Shown piece by piece: positions 21,130 to 54,908 of a DNA stretch of 64,000 nt. The first letter of the stretch is position 1. Each line of letters opens with the position of its first letter. Origin of the DNA: Deltaproteobacteria bacterium (GTDB lineage: Bacteria; Myxococcota; JACPTQ01). The notes beneath the pieces were generated by a model. It searched no databases. It had not been told where the DNA came from and was given only the letters and a program-made list of their open reading frames with translations. The stretch lies in assembly GCA_016192705.1 (NCBI GenBank), contig JACPTQ010000004.1:9398-73397 (forward strand). Direction: 5' to 3'. The translations under genes were made by a program, and so were the position numbers.

Positions 21130-22182
21130 ATGGTCCCGATGGCTTCGACGATGCGAAGAACGAAAAAGCGGCCGGGTCTCGCGAAGGCGGCGTCGCAGTT
21201 TCGGGTGCCGCGAAAGACGCTCGAATCGATTTACGGATGGATGGTCCGGCTGCGCGCGCTCGATGAGCGGATGCTGACGCTGCAGCGTCAGGGGCGCGTC
21301 GGGTTTTACGGGTCGGTGACGGGGCAGGAGGCGGTGCCGATTGCGGCGGCGCACGCGGTTGAAGCGACCGATTGGGTTTTCCCAGCGCTCCGCGAGTCGT
21401 CGATCATGCTCGTTCGCGGGTATCCGCTTGCGCGTTATGTCGCGCAGGTTTTCGGCAACGCGGGCGACGGTCAAAAGGGACGGCAGATGCCGTCGCATAT
21501 GGCGGCGCGCGAGGTGAACGTTGTGTCGTGGTCGTCGTGCATCGGCACGCAACTTCCGCAGGCGGTTGGCGCGGCGTACGCGATGAAGCTCCGTCGGGAG
21601 AGGAAAATCGCGCTCGCTTTTTTGGGCGATGGCGCGACGTCGACGGCGGATTTTCATTACGCGATGAACTTCGCGGCGGTGTTCGGTGCGCCGGTTGTGT
21701 TCGTTTGCCAAAACAATCATTGGTCGATCAGCGTGCCGACGAAGGCGCAAACAGCGAGCGAGACGCTGGCGCAAAAGGCGGTTGCGTACGGGATGCCGGG
21801 CGCGCAAGTCGATGGCAACGATGCGGAGGCGGTTTTCGTCGCGGTGCGCGAGGCAGCTGAACGTGCGCGGGCTGGCGCCGGGCCGACGCTTTTAGAGGCC
21901 GTGACGTATCGCATCGGCGCGCATTCGTCGTCGGACGATCCGACGCGGTATCGGGATGAGCGGGAAGTCGCTATGTGGCGCGGGTGCGATCCAATCGAGC
22001 GGCTTCGGGGGCGGCTTGGTGTCAGTCAGCGCGATGCGGAGAAGGCAGGGCGGCGCGCGGCCGACGAAGCGGCGAAGGTTGTGAGCGACGTTGAGGCGCT
22101 TCCGATGCCGGACGCGGTAACGCTGTTCGAGGATGTTTATGCGGAAAGGCCATGGAACTTGGTTGAGCAGCAGGGCGGATAG
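21130..22182 (+). CDS. Thiamine-diphosphate-dependent 2-oxoacid dehydrogenase E1 component, alpha subunit
   Basis: MVRLRALDERMLTLQRQGRVGFYGSVTGQEA...FLGDGATSTADFHYAMNFAAVFGAPVVFVCQNNHWSIS (TPP-binding GDG...NN motif). Start codon uncertain among ATGs at 21130, 21139 and 21151. Confidence 0.85.
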   Translation: MVPMASTMRRTKKRPGLAKAASQFRVPRKTLESIYGWMVRLRALDERMLTLQRQGRVGFYGSVTGQEAVPIAAAHAVEATDWVFPALRESSIMLVRGYPLARYVAQVFGNAGDGQKGRQMPSHMAAREVNVVSWSSCIGTQLPQAVGAAYAMKLRRERKIALAFLGDGATSTADFHYAMNFAAVFGAPVVFVCQNNHWSISVPTKAQTASETLAQKAVAYGMPGAQVDGNDAEAVFVAVREAAERARAGAGPTLLEAVTYRIGAHSSSDDPTRYRDEREVAMWRGCDPIERLRGRLGVSQRDAEKAGRRAADEAAKVVSDVEALPMPDAVTLFEDVYAERPWNLVEQQGG

Positions 22183-22331
22183 GGGAGTGGGTTTTAGTAG
22201 TCGTAGTCGTGCTCGTACACGTACTTCGTGCACGTTTCACGAGGACGACAACGAGGACGTGCTCGGCTACGACGACGAGGAAGAGCACGATTGAGTTCGG
22301 GCGCGGGTGACGTGAAGGCGAGGGCTGATTG

Positions 22332-23822
22332 ATGGCGACAGAAAAAGTTGACGCGGTGGTTGTGGGGGCGGGGCCGGGCGGCTATGTCGCGGCGATTCGG
22401 CTTGCGCAGCTTGGGCGGAAGGTGATTCTCGTCGACCGCGAGAAGGTTGGCGGCGTTTGCTTGAACTATGGCTGCATCCCGTCGAAGGCGCTCATTCACG
22501 CGGCGTCGCTCGTCGATGACGCCCGGCGCGCGAAGGAGTTTGGGATCGACGCGGTTGTGAGCGTCGATGTCACGCGGCTTCAGGCGTGGAAGGCGGGCGT
22601 CGTTGAGAAGTTGGTCGGTGGCGTAAAACAGTTGCTTAAGGGGAACGGCGTTGGATTTGTTGAGGGGGCCGCGAAATTCGTAGGCCCACGAACTTTGGAA
22701 GTCACAACGCGCGAGGGCGGGGCCCGCGAGGGCGTGCGGCGACTTGAGGCGACGACGATCATCGTTGCGACGGGGGCGCGGCCGTTTGAGGTGCCGTCGT
22801 TGCCGTTCGATGGTGTGCGCGTCGTTGGGGCGCGCGAGGCGCTCGCGTTCGATCGCGTTCCTGCGCGGCTGCTCGTGGTGGGCGGTGGCGTCATCGGGCT
22901 TGAGCTCGGGACGGTCTACGCGAAGCTCGGGTCGAAGGTGACCGTTGTCGAGATGATGGACCAGCTTCTTCCAGGGGTCGACCCAGACGCGGTGCGGATC
23001 GTCGCGCGCGGGCTCAAGCGGTGGGGCGTCGAGGTGTATGTGAAGTCGAAGGCGATTGGGGTTTCGGGGGGGGCGGATGCGAGAACGAGTACGAGGACGA
23101 GCACGGGCACGACTACGACTACGGGAGCGGGTGCGGGGGCGGGAGCGCGCGGCGTGATTGCCGTGCGCGTAGAGACGCCCGAAAAGGAAATTGTGGTCGA
23201 CGCGGACCGTGTGCTGGTCGCGGTTGGGATGCGGCCGAACACCGAGGGGCTTGGGCTTGACGCCGCGGGGATTGCCGTCGACGCAAAGGGATTCGTGCGC
23301 GTGAACGCGCGGATGGAGACAAGCGTGCCGGGGGTGTTTGCCATCGGCGATGTTTCGGGGCCGCCGCTCCTAGCGCACAAGGCGTCGAAGGAGGGTGAGA
23401 TCGCGGCCGAGGCGTCGTCGGGGCGCGGGGCGACGAACGATGTCGCGGCGATGCCCGCGGCGATTTTCACCGACCCCGAAATCGCGACGGTCGGGATGTC
23501 GGAAGCGGATGCGAAGGCGAAGGGAATCGCCGTCAAGGTTTCGAAGTTTCCGTTTGGCGCGAACGGGCGCGCGCTCACGACGGGTGCGGGCGAAGGGTTT
23601 GCAAAGATCGTCGCGGACGAGGCGACGAAGCGCGTTTTGGGCGCGACGATTGTTGGTGTCGAGGCGTCGAACCTTGTGAGCGAGGTGGCGCTTGCGATCG
23701 AGATGGGGGCCGAGGCTGGCGACATCGGGCTCACGGTGCATCCTCACCCGACGCTGTCCGAGGCGCTCATGGAGAGCGCGAACGCGGTTTTGGGCGAAGC
23801 GATTCACGCGCTGAATCGATGA
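22332..23822 (+). CDS. lpdA: Dihydrolipoyl dehydrogenase (E3) carrying an in-frame low-complexity insertion
   Basis: VVGAGPGGYVAAIRLAQLG...GGVCLNYGCIPSKAL (FAD and redox-disulfide motifs), NAD-binding GGGVIGLE, C-terminal HPHPTLSE. Insertion SGGADARTSTRTSTGTTTTTGAGAGAGARG at ~23066-23150. Confidence 0.95.
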   Translation: MATEKVDAVVVGAGPGGYVAAIRLAQLGRKVILVDREKVGGVCLNYGCIPSKALIHAASLVDDARRAKEFGIDAVVSVDVTRLQAWKAGVVEKLVGGVKQLLKGNGVGFVEGAAKFVGPRTLEVTTREGGAREGVRRLEATTIIVATGARPFEVPSLPFDGVRVVGAREALAFDRVPARLLVVGGGVIGLELGTVYAKLGSKVTVVEMMDQLLPGVDPDAVRIVARGLKRWGVEVYVKSKAIGVSGGADARTSTRTSTGTTTTTGAGAGAGARGVIAVRVETPEKEIVVDADRVLVAVGMRPNTEGLGLDAAGIAVDAKGFVRVNARMETSVPGVFAIGDVSGPPLLAHKASKEGEIAAEASSGRGATNDVAAMPAAIFTDPEIATVGMSEADAKAKGIAVKVSKFPFGANGRALTTGAGEGFAKIVADEATKRVLGATIVGVEASNLVSEVALAIEMGAEAGDIGLTVHPHPTLSEALMESANAVLGEAIHALNR

Positions 23823-24859
23823 CCCGTCCGCTTGCCGTGCGAGACTTGGGCCTCGTCGAGTACGACGATGCGCTCGAGATGCAGGAGCGGTTTGTCGCAT
23901 CGCGGCTTGCGCGAGAGTGTTCGGACACGCTCCTCCTTGTTGAGCATCCGCCCGTCATCACGAAGGGTCGCGGCGCAAAGGCGGAGCACATCCTTTCGAC
24001 CGAAGGCGTCGAGGTGTTCGACACGCCGCGTGGCGGCGACGTCACGTATCACGGGCCGGGTCAGATCGTCGCGTACCCTGTTTTCGATCTGAACCCCGAT
24101 CGGCGCGACGTGCGAAAATTCGTCTGCGGGCTCGAACGCGCGGTGATCAAGGCGCTCGCGCGGTTTGGCATCGCGGCGACGCTCCGCGACAAGACGATCG
24201 GCGTGTTCGTTGGCAACGACAAGATCGCGGCGCTCGGCGTGCGGCTCTCTCGCTGGATCACAAGCCACGGCGTGGCCTTGAACGTCTCGACCGATCTCGC
24301 GAGCTTCAATCGCATTGTGCCGTGCGGCCTTCGCGATGTGGGCGTGACGTCGATGGAGCGCGTGCTGGCGTCGCCGGTCAATTTCGTGGAGGTCAAGAAG
24401 GCGCTTGTCGACGAGGTCGCGACGGAGTTTGGCTTGTCGGCCGCTTGGGAGCCGGTCGACTGCAGCTCGATCCTCGTCGTCGTCTGCGCGGGACGTCGCG
24501 TTTTGCTTCTTAAGCGACTCGAGGAGTGGGGCGGTTTTTGGCAGCCGATCACGGGGCGCATCGATCGCGGCGAATCGCCGCATGCGGCGGCCGTGCGCGA
24601 ACTTCGCGAGGAGACGGGACTCGGTGACAACGTTCGCGTCGATCCGCTCGGCTACGTCCACGCCTTCGCGCTGAGTAAGCCGGGCCCTGCGCGCATCGGT
24701 CGCGAGCACGCGTTCGTTGCGCGGCTCGAGTTCGAGAGGCCAGTCCAGTTGTCGCCGACCGAGCACAGCCTACAGATGTGGCTTGACGTTGACGAGGCGG
24801 TGACGAAAGTTCCATACAAGGGGCTCAAGCGCGCGATGCAGCTCGCGACGGGGAGATGA
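23819..24859 (+). CDS. lipB: Lipoyl(octanoyl) transferase LipB fused to a C-terminal Nudix hydrolase domain
   Basis: N-terminal ~215 aa carry the LipB motifs (RGGDVTYHGPGQIVAYPV, KIAALGVRL, VPCGL). C-terminal domain has a perfect Nudix box GRIDRGESPHAAAVRELREETGL. Start overlaps the lpdA stop (ATGA). Confidence 0.9.
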   Translation: MTRPLAVRDLGLVEYDDALEMQERFVASRLARECSDTLLLVEHPPVITKGRGAKAEHILSTEGVEVFDTPRGGDVTYHGPGQIVAYPVFDLNPDRRDVRKFVCGLERAVIKALARFGIAATLRDKTIGVFVGNDKIAALGVRLSRWITSHGVALNVSTDLASFNRIVPCGLRDVGVTSMERVLASPVNFVEVKKALVDEVATEFGLSAAWEPVDCSSILVVVCAGRRVLLLKRLEEWGGFWQPITGRIDRGESPHAAAVRELREETGLGDNVRVDPLGYVHAFALSKPGPARIGREHAFVARLEFERPVQLSPTEHSLQMWLDVDEAVTKVPYKGLKRAMQLATGR

Positions 24860-40216: not shown

Positions 40217-41116
40217 TTACTTGCCGCCGGCGGCGCGCAGATCGGCGATGCAGTCGGCGTCGAAGTCGTTCGGCACCGTGCCAAGGAGTTGCGACACGAG
40301 GCTCGACTCGACGGCCCAATACATGACGCAACTTTGGCTGGTGTCGTGCGCGCCGTGCGCCGCGTCCTGGTGCGGGCGCTGCATCGCGACGCCGTTCCCG
40401 ACGAGCCCCAAGTTGTGGCCGGCTTCGTGGACGATGACCGCCTCCTCGATCACGTTGCCCGTGACGAGGACCGTCGCCGATTCGCTCATCGCGTCTTTGA
40501 ACATCGCGATCGCCGAGCCGGTGTGCGAGACGCCGAGGACGCGCGCGTTGCTCGTGTCGCCTTCGTAGCCGCCGCCTATATAGAGGAGGTAGAGGACAGC
40601 GGTGTCGCCCGCCGTGTAGCGGCTGCGGTGCTGTCGCTCGAGGTCGCGGAGGTCGGCGAGGCGCCAGGTGGTTGTCGCTTGCGTTGGGATTTCGGTGTCG
40701 ACGATGACCGTGATGCCGTCGGGTTTGTTGCAGCGTGCTTCGAGGCGCTGTTTGAGGAGGTTGAGCGCACCGGTGTTGGGCGCCTTCCCGCGAACGTAAT
40801 CGACTTCGACGACGAGGCGGCGGTAGCGCGTGGCGGTGAGGTAGTCGGTCGCTATCGAGCCGCTCCAACCTTGGTCGGGGGGGCCGATCGGCACGCCTGC
40901 GTCCGCGCCCGCCCCCGCGTCCGCACCCGCGCCCGCATCCGTAGCTGCATCCGCGCCCGCACCCGCGTCCGCTCCCGTTCCCGCATCCGAGCCCGCGTCC
41001 ACCGCGCGTTCACCTGGCGAAGTCGGGAGGTTCGGGGAGTCAAAGGTTCGGGGCGGAAGCCCAGTGCAGGCGAGCAAGCTGAGAGCGAGAAGTTTAGACA
41101 GAATTAACGATTTCAT
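40217..41116 (-). CDS. Lipoprotein with (DAG)n repeat linker and metzincin-like zinc-peptidase motif
   Basis: Start MKSLILSKLLALSLLAC at 41116. AGSDAGTGADAGAGADAATDAGAGADAGAGADAG. HEAGHNLGLVGNG...H. Confidence 0.7.
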   Translation of the reverse strand: MKSLILSKLLALSLLACTGLPPRTFDSPNLPTSPGERAVDAGSDAGTGADAGAGADAATDAGAGADAGAGADAGVPIGPPDQGWSGSIATDYLTATRYRRLVVEVDYVRGKAPNTGALNLLKQRLEARCNKPDGITVIVDTEIPTQATTTWRLADLRDLERQHRSRYTAGDTAVLYLLYIGGGYEGDTSNARVLGVSHTGSAIAMFKDAMSESATVLVTGNVIEEAVIVHEAGHNLGLVGNGVAMQRPHQDAAHGAHDTSQSCVMYWAVESSLVSQLLGTVPNDFDADCIADLRAAGGK

Positions 41117-41159
41117 AGAACCCACCTTTACATCCGAGAATTCGCCCATTGTCAAAGGG

Positions 41160-42800
41160 TCACGGCCGAAACGTCACCGAGAACGACTCGCCACCCGCGA
41201 TGACGCCGCCGTCCGCGACGAACTGCGCAACGCAGCCGCCGGGAATCGTGTCGAAAGCGACGGGGCCGGGCGATGCGGCCACAATCCCCGAGCACGAGCC
41301 GGTACGTCGCACAACCGGCGCGAAGGCGACGGCCCCAGTTGGCACCGGCTGCGAGAACGAGTAGTTGCCGCCCGAAATCGTGAAAGCGCCTTCGGTGGGC
41401 GCGTACGGGGCGCTCTGCGCGCGGCGCTCGAGATCGTCGCCGATCGATGCGAGCGTTGGTGCGCCGAGGCCCAGGGGCGACACGAGGAGGAGCTGCGTCG
41501 CGCTTCGGGCGGTCGTCGGGAAGGCGCCAATTCGGAGCGACAACGATGTGAATCGCCCGGCGCTCGTTTCGCACGTTGCGCTCGTTGCGCCGGGGAACCC
41601 ACCGAAAAGCGCGAGGGCGTGCGGTGGGATTGCGTTCGCCGCGCGGAGGGCAATCCAATCCATCGCACCTGCGATCGAGCAGCCGCTCTGCGGATTTGCG
41701 ACGGTTACGAGCGCGCCGCCGTCGGCGACTTGAAAGAGGGCGGTCGCGGTCGGCTCGTCGCGGCCGGCGAGGACGATGCGGGCGGGTGCCTGCGATTGGA
41801 AGAGCCCGCCGGGCGGCGTGACGGTCGTTTGAACGAACATTTGGCCCGTCGTGTAGACGGTGTAGTCGCGCGCAATGTCCCAGGTGTCGTCGTGGTCGCT
41901 GGCGCTTGTGCAGGTGGGCGTTCGTCCGGCGCGCGTCGGGTGTGAGACGGAGCGCAGGCGGGCGCGCACGCGATTCGCCTCGAGGAGCGTGAGGTGCGCT
42001 GTCGGGCCATCGGGGTCGCAAGAGTCAGAGCCCGCGGCCATTTCGTATGGGGTGCCGGAGACCGGCGACTCGAGCTTCGCGAAATCGATGAGCGTAAACG
42101 AAGCGCCGCCATCGGCGCCGGGCGCTCCGGCCGCGAGGTTATCGGTTGGCGATGAGGAGGCGAGGTCGTACCAGCCTGTGATGCCACCGCCGCCCTTTGG
42201 GTCGAAGACCAAGCGCAATGCGCCGGCATCGCTCGCGATCATCGTGTGGAGCTCGACGGTTTCGTCGAACGGGATGGCGAGCGGCGTCGCGTTCGACGTG
42301 ACGCGCGTGCACGTAGACGAGCAGCGAAGGATTTTGAGCCACGGCGGCGTGATTTCGGTCCCCGCGTCGTTCCCCGCATCCGCCCCCGCGTCCGCTACCG
42401 CGTCGGCACCCGCATCGGCATCCGCACCCGCGTCCGTTTCCGCTCCCGCGCCCGCATCCGCTACTGCTACCGCCCCCGCGTCCGCACCCGCATCCGCGCC
42501 GGCGTCTGCGCCCGCTACCGCCCCCGCGTCCGTCACACGTCCGGCGTCCCCGCCCGCATCCGCCCCCGCACCCGCGTCCACACCCGCGTCCGCAGGCCAC
42601 GCCACGCGCGAAGGAGCTTCGCTCGGCGCCATGCACAGGCCGCCCGCGCCGGTATCGACGCACAACTCGCCGCCGGGGCACGGCGCGCCGCCGACGTCAC
42701 ATCGATATCGGCCATCGCTCAAGTCGACGCCGACTCCGCAGCCCACGAAGGCGATCGCGACGACAGTGGTTCCAAATCTAAGTGGTAAACGTCGAGTCAT
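41160..42800 (-). CDS. Lipoprotein with Cys-rich N-terminus and long (DAG)n repeat linker, hypothetical
   Basis: AAGGGAGA RBS. MTRRLPLRFGTTVVAIAFVGC lipobox. ~70 aa of D-A-G-based repeats. The track ORF starts at 42974, but that part is R-rich. Confidence 0.7.
   Translation of the reverse strand: MTRRLPLRFGTTVVAIAFVGCGVGVDLSDGRYRCDVGGAPCPGGELCVDTGAGGLCMAPSEAPSRVAWPADAGVDAGAGADAGGDAGRVTDAGAVAGADAGADAGADAGAVAVADAGAGAETDAGADADAGADAVADAGADAGNDAGTEITPPWLKILRCSSTCTRVTSNATPLAIPFDETVELHTMIASDAGALRLVFDPKGGGGITGWYDLASSSPTDNLAAGAPGADGGASFTLIDFAKLESPVSGTPYEMAAGSDSCDPDGPTAHLTLLEANRVRARLRSVSHPTRAGRTPTCTSASDHDDTWDIARDYTVYTTGQMFVQTTVTPPGGLFQSQAPARIVLAGRDEPTATALFQVADGGALVTVANPQSGCSIAGAMDWIALRAANAIPPHALALFGGFPGATSATCETSAGRFTSLSLRIGAFPTTARSATQLLLVSPLGLGAPTLASIGDDLERRAQSAPYAPTEGAFTISGGNYSFSQPVPTGAVAFAPVVRRTGSCSGIVAASPGPVAFDTIPGGCVAQFVADGGVIAGGESFSVTFRP
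42340..42600 (-). repeat. Tandem 9/18-bp coding microsatellite (DAG-repeat); a second array at ~40880-41000
   Basis: Iterated gcgtccgcacccgcgcccgcatccgc-type units on the + strand in both adjacent lipoprotein genes. Confidence 0.6.
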
Positions 42801-46508: not shown

Positions 46509-49202
46509 ATGACACGCAGCCAATCGGATTACTTTCGCCCCGACGACAGCGACACAAGTCCCGACGAGACGCGCGAGTGGATCGAATCGCTCGACGCCGT
46601 GATCGCGCGCGAAGGGAAGGAGCGCGCGGCGTTTTTGCTCGAGACGCTGCTCGAGCGTGCGCGCGTGACGCACACGCCGTCGCCGGCGCTCGTGCAGACG
46701 CCGTACGTCAACACCATCGCGCCCGAGGATGAACCGGCGTACCCCGGCAATGAGGCGATCGAGCTGCGCATCCGGCGCATTGTTCGGTGGAACGCGGTCG
46801 CGATGGTGCAGCGCGCGAACACGCTCTTCGGTGGGATCGGCGGGCACCTCGCGACGTATGCGTCGGCCGCGACATTATATGAGGTGGGGTTTAACCACTT
46901 CTTTCGAGGGCGCGGCGATGAGGGCGAGGCGAGCGGCGACCAGGTGTTTTTTCAGGGGCACGCGTCGCCTGGGATTTACGCGCGCGCGCTTTTGGAAGGC
47001 CGGTTGTCGGTCGAGCAGCTTGAGCGGTTTCGGCGGGAATGCGAGGCGGGGCGCGGGTTGTCGTCGTATCCCCATCCGTATTTGATGCCCGAGTTTTGGG
47101 AGTTTCCAACGGTGTCGATGGGGCTTTCGCCGCTCGCGGCGATCTATCAGGCGCGCTTCAATCGGTACTTGCACCACCGCGGAATCAAAGACACGAGCGC
47201 GTCGCGCGTTTGGGCGTTCTTGGGTGACGGCGAAACCGACGAGCCGGAAGCGCTTGGGTCGCTTTCGATCGCGGCGCGCGAAAAGCTCGATAACTTGGTG
47301 TTCGTCGTGAACTGCAATCTGCAGCGACTCGATGGGCCGGTGCGTGGGAACGGAAAGATCATTCAAGAGCTCGAGGCGGTGTTTCGCGGCGCCGGGTGGA
47401 ACGTCATCAAGGTGATTTGGGGGCGCAAATGGGATGCGCTGCTTGAGGCCGATAAGACCGGGCTCCTTGTGAAGCGGATGGGCGAGGTGGTCGATGGCGA
47501 ATATCAAAAGTATTCGGTCGAGCCGGGGGCGTACACGCGCGAGCATTTTTTTGGGAAGTATCCGGAGCTGCTCACGCTCGTTGCGGGGATGACGGATCGC
47601 GAGATACAGCGGCTTCGGCGAGGCGGGCACGACGATCACAAGGTGTACGCGGCGTTTCATGCGGCGGTGAATCACACGGGGCAGCCGACGGTTGTACTTG
47701 CGAAGACGGTGAAAGGGTGGACGCTCGGCGAGGCGGCGCAAGGGAAGAACGTTGCGCATCAACGGAAGAAGATGTCGGTCGAGGAGCTGAAGGCGTTTCG
47801 CGACGAGATTCAGTTGCCGATTCCCGACAGCAAGATCGCCGATGCGCCGTTCTATGTGCCGCCACGGGATAGTCCCGAAGTCGAATATGTTGTCGAGCGG
47901 CGTCGCGCGCTCGGTGGGTTTGTGCCGCGTCGGCGCGTCGTGGCGAAGGCGGTCGAGGTGCCGTCGATCGCGGATTTTGGCGCGTTCCTCGAGGGGAGCG
48001 GCGAAGCGGAGGTGTCGACGACCAACGTGTTCGCGCGGCTGCTCGCGCAGATGCTCGCGGACAAGCGCTTCGGGCGGCGCGTCGTGCCGATCATTCCGGA
48101 CGAGGCGCGGACGTTTGGGCTCGACGTGCTGTTTCGGCAGTACGGGATCTACTCGGCGGTTGGGCAGCTTTACGAGCCGGTCGATCACGGGATGCTGCTC
48201 CGCTATCGTGAGGCGCTCGACGGCCAGGTGCTCGAAGAGGGCATCACCGAAGCGGGCGCAACCGCGATGTTCACGGCCGCCGGGACGGCGTACGCGACGC
48301 ACGCGGAGCCGATGATTCCTTTCTATATCTTCTATTCAATGTTTGGTTATCAACGCGTCGGCGACCAGCTGTGGGCGTTCGGCGACCAGCGCGGGCGCGG
48401 GTTTTTGTGCGGCGCGACGGCCGGGCGCACGACGCTGAACGGCGAGGGGCTCCAGCATCAAGACGGGCACTCGCTGCTTGTTGCGAGCGCGCACCCGACG
48501 GTTCGCGCGTACGAGCCGGCGTTCGCTTACGAACTCGCGGTGATTGTGGCCGACGGCTTGAAGCGAATGTATGGCGACGGCGTCGACACTTACTATTACC
48601 TGACGCTGCAAAACGAGACTTACACGATGCCGCCGATGCCCGCGGGCGCCGCGGACGGCATTGTGCGCGGGCTGTACAAGTTTTGCGATGCGCCGGCTGG
48701 AGCGGGCGAAATGCGCGCGACGCTCCTCGGAAGCGGCTCGATTCTAAATGAAGTCTTGGCCGCGCAGAAGTTGCTCGCGAAACATTTTGGCGTTGCGGCC
48801 GAGGTTTGGAGCGCGCCGTCGTATTCGATGCTTCGGCGCGACGCGCTCCGGTGCGAACGCCACAACATGCTTCACCCCGAAGCGGAGCGGCTTGTGCCGT
48901 ACGTTGCGGCCGCGCTCGCCGAGGCGCAAGGCCCGATCGTCGCGGCAAGCGACTGGGTCACCGCGGTGCCAGACCAGATTGCGCGCTGGGTGCCCGGCGG
49001 ACTCCACACGCTCGGCACGGACGGGTTTGGCCGCAGCGACACGCGGCAATCGCTTCGCCGCTTCTACGGCGTCGACGCGGAAACGATCGCGGTCGCGACG
49101 CTTTTCGCGCTCGCAAAACGCGAAGACATCCCGATGTCGCGCGTCACCGACGCGATTCGCCTCCTCTGCCTCAACCCCAACGCCATCGACGCTCGCTCGT
49201 AG
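46509..49202 (+). CDS. aceE: Pyruvate dehydrogenase E1 component, homodimeric type
   Basis: 897 aa. DPDETREWIESLDAVI..., GGHLATYASAATLYEVGFNHFF and other AceE-family motifs along the whole length. Confidence 0.95.
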   Translation: MTRSQSDYFRPDDSDTSPDETREWIESLDAVIAREGKERAAFLLETLLERARVTHTPSPALVQTPYVNTIAPEDEPAYPGNEAIELRIRRIVRWNAVAMVQRANTLFGGIGGHLATYASAATLYEVGFNHFFRGRGDEGEASGDQVFFQGHASPGIYARALLEGRLSVEQLERFRRECEAGRGLSSYPHPYLMPEFWEFPTVSMGLSPLAAIYQARFNRYLHHRGIKDTSASRVWAFLGDGETDEPEALGSLSIAAREKLDNLVFVVNCNLQRLDGPVRGNGKIIQELEAVFRGAGWNVIKVIWGRKWDALLEADKTGLLVKRMGEVVDGEYQKYSVEPGAYTREHFFGKYPELLTLVAGMTDREIQRLRRGGHDDHKVYAAFHAAVNHTGQPTVVLAKTVKGWTLGEAAQGKNVAHQRKKMSVEELKAFRDEIQLPIPDSKIADAPFYVPPRDSPEVEYVVERRRALGGFVPRRRVVAKAVEVPSIADFGAFLEGSGEAEVSTTNVFARLLAQMLADKRFGRRVVPIIPDEARTFGLDVLFRQYGIYSAVGQLYEPVDHGMLLRYREALDGQVLEEGITEAGATAMFTAAGTAYATHAEPMIPFYIFYSMFGYQRVGDQLWAFGDQRGRGFLCGATAGRTTLNGEGLQHQDGHSLLVASAHPTVRAYEPAFAYELAVIVADGLKRMYGDGVDTYYYLTLQNETYTMPPMPAGAADGIVRGLYKFCDAPAGAGEMRATLLGSGSILNEVLAAQKLLAKHFGVAAEVWSAPSYSMLRRDALRCERHNMLHPEAERLVPYVAAALAEAQGPIVAASDWVTAVPDQIARWVPGGLHTLGTDGFGRSDTRQSLRRFYGVDAETIAVATLFALAKREDIPMSRVTDAIRLLCLNPNAIDARS

Positions 49203-53933: not shown

Positions 53934-54908
53934 TCAGCGTTTCTTTTTGAGAAGGTCGATCGCGTCGTGCGCCGCTTGGCGAATCGCTGGGTGTTCGTGA
54001 CCCTTTTCGAGCGTCCATAAAAACGCCTCCGCCTTTGCTCCGCCCAGATCGCCGAGCGCATAAATAACTTCACGCAGCGTCTGGGGATCCTTGCGTGCCG
54101 CGAAATCGATGAGGGGATTCACCGCGCGAGCATCCTTGAGCGACACGAGGGCGCCCACCGCGCGTCGTGCAACGGCGGGCTCATCGTCTTTGAGCAGCGC
54201 GACGAAAAGATCAAAGTGGGCAGGGTCGCGTCTCTCCGCGAGCTCGTTGGCCGCAATCAGTCGCCGTTCGCCTTCCGCCCCTCCGTCGGGGCGCGACTTC
54301 AGCAAGGCCACCAGTTGGTCAACCGGCAGCTTCGGGACGCGGACTTTCAACGCGAGCGACTCTACCGTGTCTCGAACGGCCCGCTCCACGATCTCGCGGT
54401 ACGTCCTGTCCGCGCCTTCGCCCTTTGGGACTGGGCGAAAACCGATCGCGTTGGCTTCGAACCGGTCGTCGTCGAGGCTGAGGACTCCGCTCACGGCCAC
54501 GAACGACTCATGCTTCTTTCGCGTCGCGACCGCAACGCGAACTTGCAAACGACCCGAAGCCGCCGTCTTTTGGCGTCCTCCCTGCGCGCGAAACGCTTCG
54601 AACACAATTCGTTCGAGCTCCGCCTTCTCCATCGGGCGCCGGTCGCGTGGAACAGCGGCGCCGGTCTCGTCGCTGACCCAGATCTCCCCGACGACAATCG
54701 GTTGTGCGCCTGCGCTGACGGCCACCTTCACTATTTCTTCGCGAGCGTTCGTGGTCGTCGTCGTGCCCGTGCTCGCCATCGTTCTCGTGCTCGCGATGTT
54801 GGCATCCGCACGGGTCGGTGAATCACCATGGTCCTTGCATGAAGCCGAGATCAACAAGATGCCAAGAACGATCGCACGGCCAGACGAAAGATGATCAACC
54901 GCTCCCAC
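53934..54908 (-). CDS. HEAT/PBS-lyase repeat protein, possibly a lipoprotein; start uncertain
   Basis: C-terminal HEAT-like repeats (DPAVARRAVGALVSLKDARAVNPLI). A candidate GTG start at 54908 gives VGAVDHLSSGRAIVLGILLISASC. Upstream of this the 518-aa track ORF is R-rich. Confidence 0.5.
   Translation of the reverse strand: MGAVDHLSSGRAIVLGILLISASCKDHGDSPTRADANIASTRTMASTGTTTTTNAREEIVKVAVSAGAQPIVVGEIWVSDETGAAVPRDRRPMEKAELERIVFEAFRAQGGRQKTAASGRLQVRVAVATRKKHESFVAVSGVLSLDDDRFEANAIGFRPVPKGEGADRTYREIVERAVRDTVESLALKVRVPKLPVDQLVALLKSRPDGGAEGERRLIAANELAERRDPAHFDLFVALLKDDEPAVARRAVGALVSLKDARAVNPLIDFAARKDPQTLREVIYALGDLGGAKAEAFLWTLEKGHEHPAIRQAAHDAIDLLKKKR

Follow-up and report, generated by a model that had tools for sequence, protein, structure and literature searches.

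Does the short GC-rich repeat shared by the dihydrolipoyl dehydrogenase gene lpdA and the spacer in front of it record a recombination event, or do the two tracts only look alike? The question arises in a 64,000-nucleotide stretch of contig JACPTQ010000004.1 from an uncultured deltaproteobacterium (hereafter the window, meaning that whole stretch), where lpdA lies downstream of a pdhA-like gene and carries an in-frame low-complexity insertion. An earlier reading made from the letters of the window (the sequence-only reading) had seen in the lpdA tract and the spacer one element in inverted orientation, a hint of local recombination, and had raised a possible link to missing pyruvate dehydrogenase genes. 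From the analysis described here, the lpdA tract is probably an ordinary case of lineage-specific, repeat-driven low-complexity growth in a tolerant loop, and the resemblance of the spacer to it is probably largely compositional. The features of lpdA on which this rests are:

22332..23822, plus strand: lpdA, dihydrolipoyl dehydrogenase (E3), 496 amino acids (Pfam Pyr_redox_2, Pyr_redox and Pyr_redox_dim).
22710..22739, plus strand: 15-nt tandem duplication (CGCGAGGGCG-GGGCC / CGCGAGGGCG-TGCGG), read as REGGA/REGVR; a 5-amino-acid insertion in alignment columns 154-158.
23067..23150, plus strand: in-frame low-complexity insertion (GGADARTSTRTSTGTTTTTGAGAGAGA); edges uncertain by a few codons, gaps in all 17 homologues.
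23079..23126, plus strand: (ACG-NNN)x8 hexamer array, Thr alternating with Ser/Arg/Gly/Thr (TRF period 6, 7.3 copies, 81% matches; also period 12).
23122..23147, plus strand: (GCG-GGN)x4 hexamer array, Ala-Gly repeats (TRF period 6, 4.3 copies, 85% matches).

Apart from its insertions LpdA is a canonical E3, as had been claimed, and this is borne out by its Pfam domains, its closest solved structure (2eq6, the Thermus E3, 2e-130) and its invariant catalytic residues. An identical protein is named dihydrolipoyl dehydrogenase at NCBI. We aligned the window protein with 17 homologues, the best of them about 56-61% identical; the columns that hold the motifs GAGPGG, GGVCLNYGCIPSK, GGGVIG and HPHPTLSE are invariant, the redox cysteines C43/C48 and the residues H472/E477 are invariant as well, and the nucleotide-binding glycines are in place. 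The protein therefore has everything that defines an E3, namely the FAD/NAD Rossmann motifs, the CxxxxC pair, the C-terminal His-Glu dyad and the dimerisation domain. No LpdA closer than about 60% identity was found in a database of 5.8 billion proteins, JGI metagenome proteins included. The Thermus thermophilus enzyme 2eq6 shares with the window LpdA the complete domain set and the catalytic residues, but the window protein is longer by 25 residues at one hairpin (...EKKKDGLHV... in 2eq6) and by 5 residues derived from the 15-nt duplication.

The 25 extra residues, GGADARTSTRTSTGTTTTTGAGAGA, stand opposite a gap in 17/17 homologues, and none of these relatives (0/17) carries an insertion there. 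Alignment with orthologues had been proposed as the way to set the boundaries; it gives 25 clean gap columns, but the exact edges stay ambiguous by a few codons. The lpdA frame across the tract translates as ...ADARTSTRTSTGTTTTTGAGAGAGARG..., as quoted before, and the description of a Thr/Gly/Ala-rich, repeat-derived, in-frame insertion of about 25 residues in a surface loop proved accurate. Taken as a whole the tract gives TRF periods of 6 and 12 with 74-85% matches, and it consists of two diverged arrays. Its units run head to tail, its length is a multiple of three, it keeps the frame and it is missing from orthologues, all of which is found in insertions of the slippage type. Throughout 23082-23147 nearly all the variation is at one position of the unit, which in the lpdA frame is the third base of alternate codons; the ACG and GCG codons never vary in their third base, and the first four variable bases are A, T, G and C. 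An AlphaFold model gives residues 248-272, which bridge the strands 240-245 and 276-281, a pLDDT below 50 and is confident elsewhere, and the insertion is thus predicted to form a disordered beta-hairpin tip in the NAD-binding domain. From what is generally known of E3 structures, we take this tip to be solvent-exposed and far from the active site. The tract has no self-complementarity as a folded strand (z +0.6; 146/200 shuffles fold as well). Rare codons (AGA, AGT, AGG and two ACT) make up 5/26 of the insertion and 15/470 of the rest of lpdA (p = 0.0012). An 8-nt direct repeat, GGGGGCGG (23069-23076 and 23135-23142), brackets 66 nt of the insertion, and deletion of one copy with the interval would leave ...KAIGVSGGAGARGVIAV...; this repeat is low in information content because it is G-rich.

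The tract is not the only growth of this kind in the gene. The duplication at 22710-22739 adds another 5 lineage-specific residues about 350 nt upstream of the tract and is likewise missing in 17/17 homologues. Neither the tract nor the spacer is an assembly artefact, since two independent Logan assemblies from different runs (SRR12113426 and SRR12113422) reproduce the window base for base in this region, and the length of the tract is identical in these two assemblies of the organism. One of them, Logan contig L002, starts at 22224, exactly at the left arm's inner edge in the spacer palindrome; a drop in coverage, a branch in the assembly graph or strain variation at the repeat could account for this break.

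The resemblance that raised the question lies in the spacer, whose features are:

22183..22331, no strand assigned: pdhA-lpdA intergenic spacer, 149 nt, read directly.
22197..22239, minus strand: left palindrome arm, ACG-NNN hexamers on the minus strand (TRF period 6); the copy noticed in the earlier reading.
22240..22285, plus strand: right palindrome arm, ACG-NNN hexamers in direct orientation, a direct repeat with lpdA.

The spacer string at 22197-22224, GTAGTCGTAGTCGTGCTCGTACACGTAC, and the lpdA string compared with it are both present where they had been placed, and the reverse complement of the former is indeed close to the lpdA tract: 22197-22225 and 23094-23122 form an inverted repeat of 29 nt with 86% complementarity. 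To this we add a direct repeat that had gone unmentioned, between 22240-22278 of the spacer and 23080-23118 of lpdA (39 nt, 79%). As the left arm matches lpdA inverted and the right arm matches it directly, the spacer is an imperfect palindrome of a single hexamer word. Its 111-nt core has a folding free energy (dG) of -41 kcal/mol as RNA (z -2.1) and a z of -3.0 as DNA. The spacer matches nothing in Rfam. The scanned region showed no promoter-like site and holds six terminator-like matches (3.9 expected); none of the six is in the spacer, and no U-tract was seen. Several small open reading frames in the spacer were considered and rejected, namely a 35-amino-acid frame with a GTG start that ends in HEDDNEDVLGYDDEEEHD, an Arg-rich frame overlapping the lpdA start, and frames on the minus strand, because half of each uses rare codons, as expected of a translated palindrome, and none has a usable ribosome-binding spacing. 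A His/Asp/Tyr-rich reading in an alternative frame was discarded too, since ACG-rich Thr codons automatically give it when read in the +2 frame.

Is the match between spacer and lpdA more than chance? Against random sequence it clearly is. An 18-mer search with up to 3 mismatches returned 5 matches where 0.04 were expected, and an nhmmer search that used just the lpdA tract as query picked up three further sites (E = 3e-4, 5e-4 and 5e-3), the background beginning at E = 1.3; the left arm of the spacer scored 5e-3 and the right arm 5e-4. When the eight hexamers of the Thr part were permuted, p was 0.097 for the direct arm and 0.073 for the inverted arm. The match had been expected to vanish once corrected for low complexity, if it were spurious; it holds against shuffled sequence, but it is not significant when the hexamer composition is kept (p = 0.07-0.10). 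A scan of 185,000 genomes for the 20-nt core ACGRGCACGACNACGACNAC found at least 120 loci, all of those listed lying in unrelated GC-rich organisms. As background we used the 122 core-sharing sites among the matches listed, which include none of this organism's own contigs. Their scores against the lpdA tract reach 29 at most, with the median at 17 and the 90th percentile at 21.5; the spacer arms score 19-20. By a longest-open-reading-frame heuristic the core word is read in the listed genomes as His/Asp tracts (47), as poly-Val on the opposite strand (29) and as Thr runs (20). Judged on these occurrences, the core is a generic low-complexity word and not the signature of one element. ACG makes up 58% of the Thr codons in this genome, and because it dominates them, Thr-rich tracts look alike in DNA. 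Beyond the Thr part, the collinear extension between spacer and lpdA is a weak second block, and about 1% of window tiles score as high. The likeness of spacer and lpdA thus appears to be mainly compositional. Of the suggestion that the two copies are one element linked by local recombination, what stands is that the match beats random sequence in both searches; the hexamer permutations and scores typical of unrelated ACG-periodic tracts speak against it, as does the position of the best match to the insertion, which lies elsewhere:

54747..54797, minus strand: linker of a HEAT-repeat lipoprotein (…CKDHGDSPTRADANIASTRTMASTGTTTTTNAREE…), after the lipobox; closest match to the lpdA insertion in the window.

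This linker, read in protein as …ADANIASTRTMASTGTTTTTNA…, is 31 kb from lpdA and matches the tract at 39/45 nt without gaps (blastn E = 1.2e-6; nhmmer E = 1.5e-5 to 2.9e-4). Against the lpdA tract, the generic Thr linker located at 10.4 kb gives no match at all. In its second half (GAGAGAGA) the insertion is similar to the DAGAGA and GSG linkers that other, secreted proteins have at 40.9, 42.4 and 61.5 kb. Hexamer-period linkers were seen in secreted proteins and lipoproteins at 40217-41155, 41160-42797, 60701-61996 and 9836-15496, and comprise DAGAGA repeats in two adjacent genes, a GGGSGS linker with an 18-nt period and 88% matches, and a Thr-rich linker in a protein of 1886 amino acids. No cytosolic enzyme other than LpdA has such a tract among the genes called in the window. 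A profile search found no further copies in the 64 kb or in 2.9 kb beyond, the latter through the extension of one Logan contig. In a protein database search with the 41-residue insertion and flanks, three candidates were retrieved, none of which scored.

The reading that we favour, growth in place, would run as follows. Slippage or another duplication-type mutation would have enlarged both hexamer arrays of the lpdA tract, and the extra disordered residues at the hairpin tip were presumably tolerated. The same process may have left the tandem duplication upstream in lpdA and may have produced the Thr-, Gly/Ser- and Asp/Ala/Gly-rich linkers of the secreted proteins elsewhere in the window. The spacer hairpin may act as an intercistronic stem-loop. 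Slippage is the standard account of the expansion of low-complexity regions (PMC3523016). Like regions that grew in this way, the window tract has a hexamer period, is in frame, is predicted to be disordered, occupies a tolerant surface loop and is lineage-specific; unlike them, it is a composite of two arrays, it has rare codons, and it matches the linker of an unrelated gene in hexamer order, which slippage in place does not by itself predict. Several observations weigh against growth in place. The hexamer order shared by lpdA and the lipoprotein linker agrees beyond composition (order-permutation p = 0.0006); both have an irregular ACGGGC unit at the same place, with the 8-mer GCGGATGC upstream, 9 nt out of register; such agreement suggests a shared origin more than separate slippage events. 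The four collinear copies of the 64 kb score 40-45 bits against a background below 8, a contrast that is circular in that the profile was built from the same four copies; with the lpdA tract alone as query, the other three reach E = 3e-4 to 5e-3, where background begins at 1.3. The two ACT rare codons of the insertion are also found in the spacer arm, and rare codons would fit a recent non-coding source. A codon-like tract of hexamer period in a non-coding spacer, 860 nt from the one cytosolic enzyme that has a tract of this sort, is an odd coincidence. The spacer as a whole, finally, folds no better than its shuffles (z -0.2), and its hairpin is much weaker than those that relatives have at this position (z -6.5 and -4.4).

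The lipoprotein match, the rare codons and the closeness of the spacer keep a rival reading in play, ectopic copying from one low-complexity tract to another, in which a Thr-linker segment of about 50-60 nt, like that of the lipoprotein at 54.7 kb, would have been placed in the lpdA loop and in the spacer, an inverted duplication would have followed within the spacer, and all four copies would be homologous. We regard this as unlikely. The copying would have gone by illegitimate recombination, gene conversion or templated break repair. It would explain the p value of the lipoprotein linker and its score of 30, higher than all 122 unrelated core-sharing sites among the matches listed. It would account as well for the irregular ACGGGC / TCGGCT unit found at one position in three copies with the displaced 8-mer, and for the nhmmer result, in which the lpdA tract retrieved exactly the other three copies at E of about 0.005 or lower. 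The rare codons of the insertion, the direct repeat that flanks 66 nt of it, the weak second block downstream of the Thr part in both spacer and lpdA, and the closeness of spacer to lpdA would also be as expected. Against this, the pair of spacer and lpdA is not significant under hexamer permutation, unrelated genomes hold sites nearly as good against the lpdA tract (29 against 30, although that search covered far more sequence), both the flanking repeat and the second block are low-information, G-rich sequence, and no relative is close enough to polarise the events, the closest LpdA being about 60% identical. That this uncultured deltaproteobacterial lineage has a frame-preserving Thr-linker cassette of about 50-75 nt, copied among genes and spacers and now present in lipoprotein linkers, in the LpdA loop and, twice in opposite orientations, in the lpdA leader, strikes us as quite improbable. 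Very improbable, in our view, is a small, dispersed, frame-tolerant selfish element, similar to the Rickettsia palindromic elements or to a miniature inverted-repeat transposable element (MITE) or repetitive extragenic palindrome (REP), with one copy in lpdA, one in a lipoprotein gene and two inverted to each other in the spacer. In its favour there are four copies in 64 kb, one of which is in frame at a protein surface, as the alignment and the model indicate for the lpdA copy, and the spacer copy is palindromic; the Rickettsia palindromic elements provide the precedent, since they insert in frame in housekeeping and metabolic genes at fold-compatible positions (PMC10969869). The lpdA copy, however, has no hairpin potential and only the inverted pair in the spacer folds; no terminal inverted repeats, convincing target-site duplication or defined ends were seen; the common core is short, about 45 nt, low in complexity and generic across unrelated genomes; and neither further copies nor a similar family of hairpins appeared in the window, nor further copies in the 2.9 kb beyond. 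Whereas the Rickettsia elements are about 150 bp long, palindromic in every copy and grouped in defined families of tens of copies, the coding copy of the window is not palindromic, its core has undefined ends, and four copies are known in 64 kb. What they share is a short repeat that occurs both in a spacer and in frame in a metabolic enzyme, where the protein fold allows it (PMC10969869).

A further possibility, compatible with growth in place in lpdA, is that the spacer palindrome is a functional intercistronic stem-loop, either an element of mRNA processing or stability or an attenuator, and that its likeness to lpdA is incidental. It is proposed because the corresponding spacers of two relatives contain strong hairpins of unrelated sequence, and we hold it as a tentative idea on which we would not count. 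In both relatives where an orphan E1-alpha gene abuts lpdA (L126 and L127) a long hairpin lies between the two, at 6860-6931 in L126 (z -6.5) and at 6885-6950 in L127 (z -4.4); 0/200 shuffles reach either, and the sequences are unrelated. Most other spacers in these two loci are unstructured, and the arms of the L126 hairpin are themselves short tandem repeats, three ACGCAGAG octamers and their complement. The window hairpin, in comparison, is weak in both the core and the entire spacer, it has neither a U-tract nor an Rfam match, and the sample amounts to three loci. Moreover, the spacer between E1-beta and E2 in L127 (3474-3729) is packed with short GC-rich tetraloop hairpins of the GCCCCTTCGGGGC type (z about -10), which look like repetitive extragenic palindromes of that genome; because such hairpins occur in another spacer of L127, those next to lpdA may be generic intergenic elements, and the hint given by position is weak. 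With repetitive extragenic palindromes and operon stem-loops the window spacer shares an imperfect palindrome between co-directional genes and the presence of hairpins at the same position in relatives, but its gain in stability over shuffles is small and its arms are hexamer arrays instead of a compact GC-rich stem. No other hairpin of such a family was found in the 64-kb window, where the profile matches only the four known sites.

The sequence-only reading had further suggested that the repeat was connected with the absence of E1-beta and E2, and that comparison with syntenic loci might reveal a deletion scar in the spacer. Neither suggestion is supported. By tblastn, no E1-beta or E2 genes or remnants of them were found in the 64-kb window. 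Four distant relatives (L003, L125, L126 and L127) have the order lipA-E1-alpha-E1-beta-E2, followed by a second, orphan E1-alpha without a partner E1-beta, and then lpdA-lipB. The orphan gene lies at 5839-6804 in L126, 5740-6855 in L127, 4161-5186 in L003 and 3034-4152 in L125; in L126 it abuts lpdA across a spacer of 196 nt and in L127 across one of 145 nt, and pmbA/tldD sit between the two in L003 and L125. Of the two E1-alpha genes of L003, the second is closer to the window pdhA (56% identity) than the first (51%), and the GDG...NN thiamine-diphosphate motif of pdhA is intact; pdhA is of the orphan, second E1-alpha type. Since the orphan E1-alpha abuts lpdA in L126 and L127 and pdhA is nearer to the orphan paralogue, the 149-nt spacer is of normal length and the break in synteny lies upstream of pdhA. 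The spacer as the scar of E1-beta and E2 loss was rejected on the arrangement in L126 and L127, the paralogy of pdhA and the lack of remnants in the window.

The remaining genes of the locus are:

21130..22182, plus strand: pdhA-like E1-alpha gene (Pfam E1_dh, 7e-83).
23819-24859: lipB-NUDIX fusion, whose start overlaps the lpdA stop.

The composition of the contig window is 62% GC. The fusion of octanoyltransferase LipB with NUDIX (23819-24859) is also present in an Anaeromyxobacter-type locus (L004). An aceE-type homodimeric pyruvate dehydrogenase E1 is encoded at 46509-49202 (PDH_E1_M, 2e-87), with no E2 adjacent to it or elsewhere in the window. A clean terminator-like hairpin occurs at 58161-58192 (AAAACCCGCGGCGA ... 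TCTCCGCGGGTTTT, 93% complementary).

What the locus means depends on which account is right. If copying between sites had occurred, low-complexity linker sequence would have moved between unrelated bacterial genes, and this is the only part that would be of specialist interest; a Thr-linker cassette, if it existed, would amount to a low-complexity counterpart of the Rickettsia palindromic elements, or to a footprint left by templated break repair. If the ordinary reading is true, namely growth in place with a spacer that is alike mostly in composition, the value of the case is mostly cautionary: short matches between ACG-periodic tracts should not be read as recombination scars, because such tracts are alike on either strand and in any frame in GC-rich genomes. 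The lpdA gene does offer a clean example of a conserved enzyme that tolerates repeat-driven growth at a hairpin tip, and a further, independent tandem duplication is found in it.

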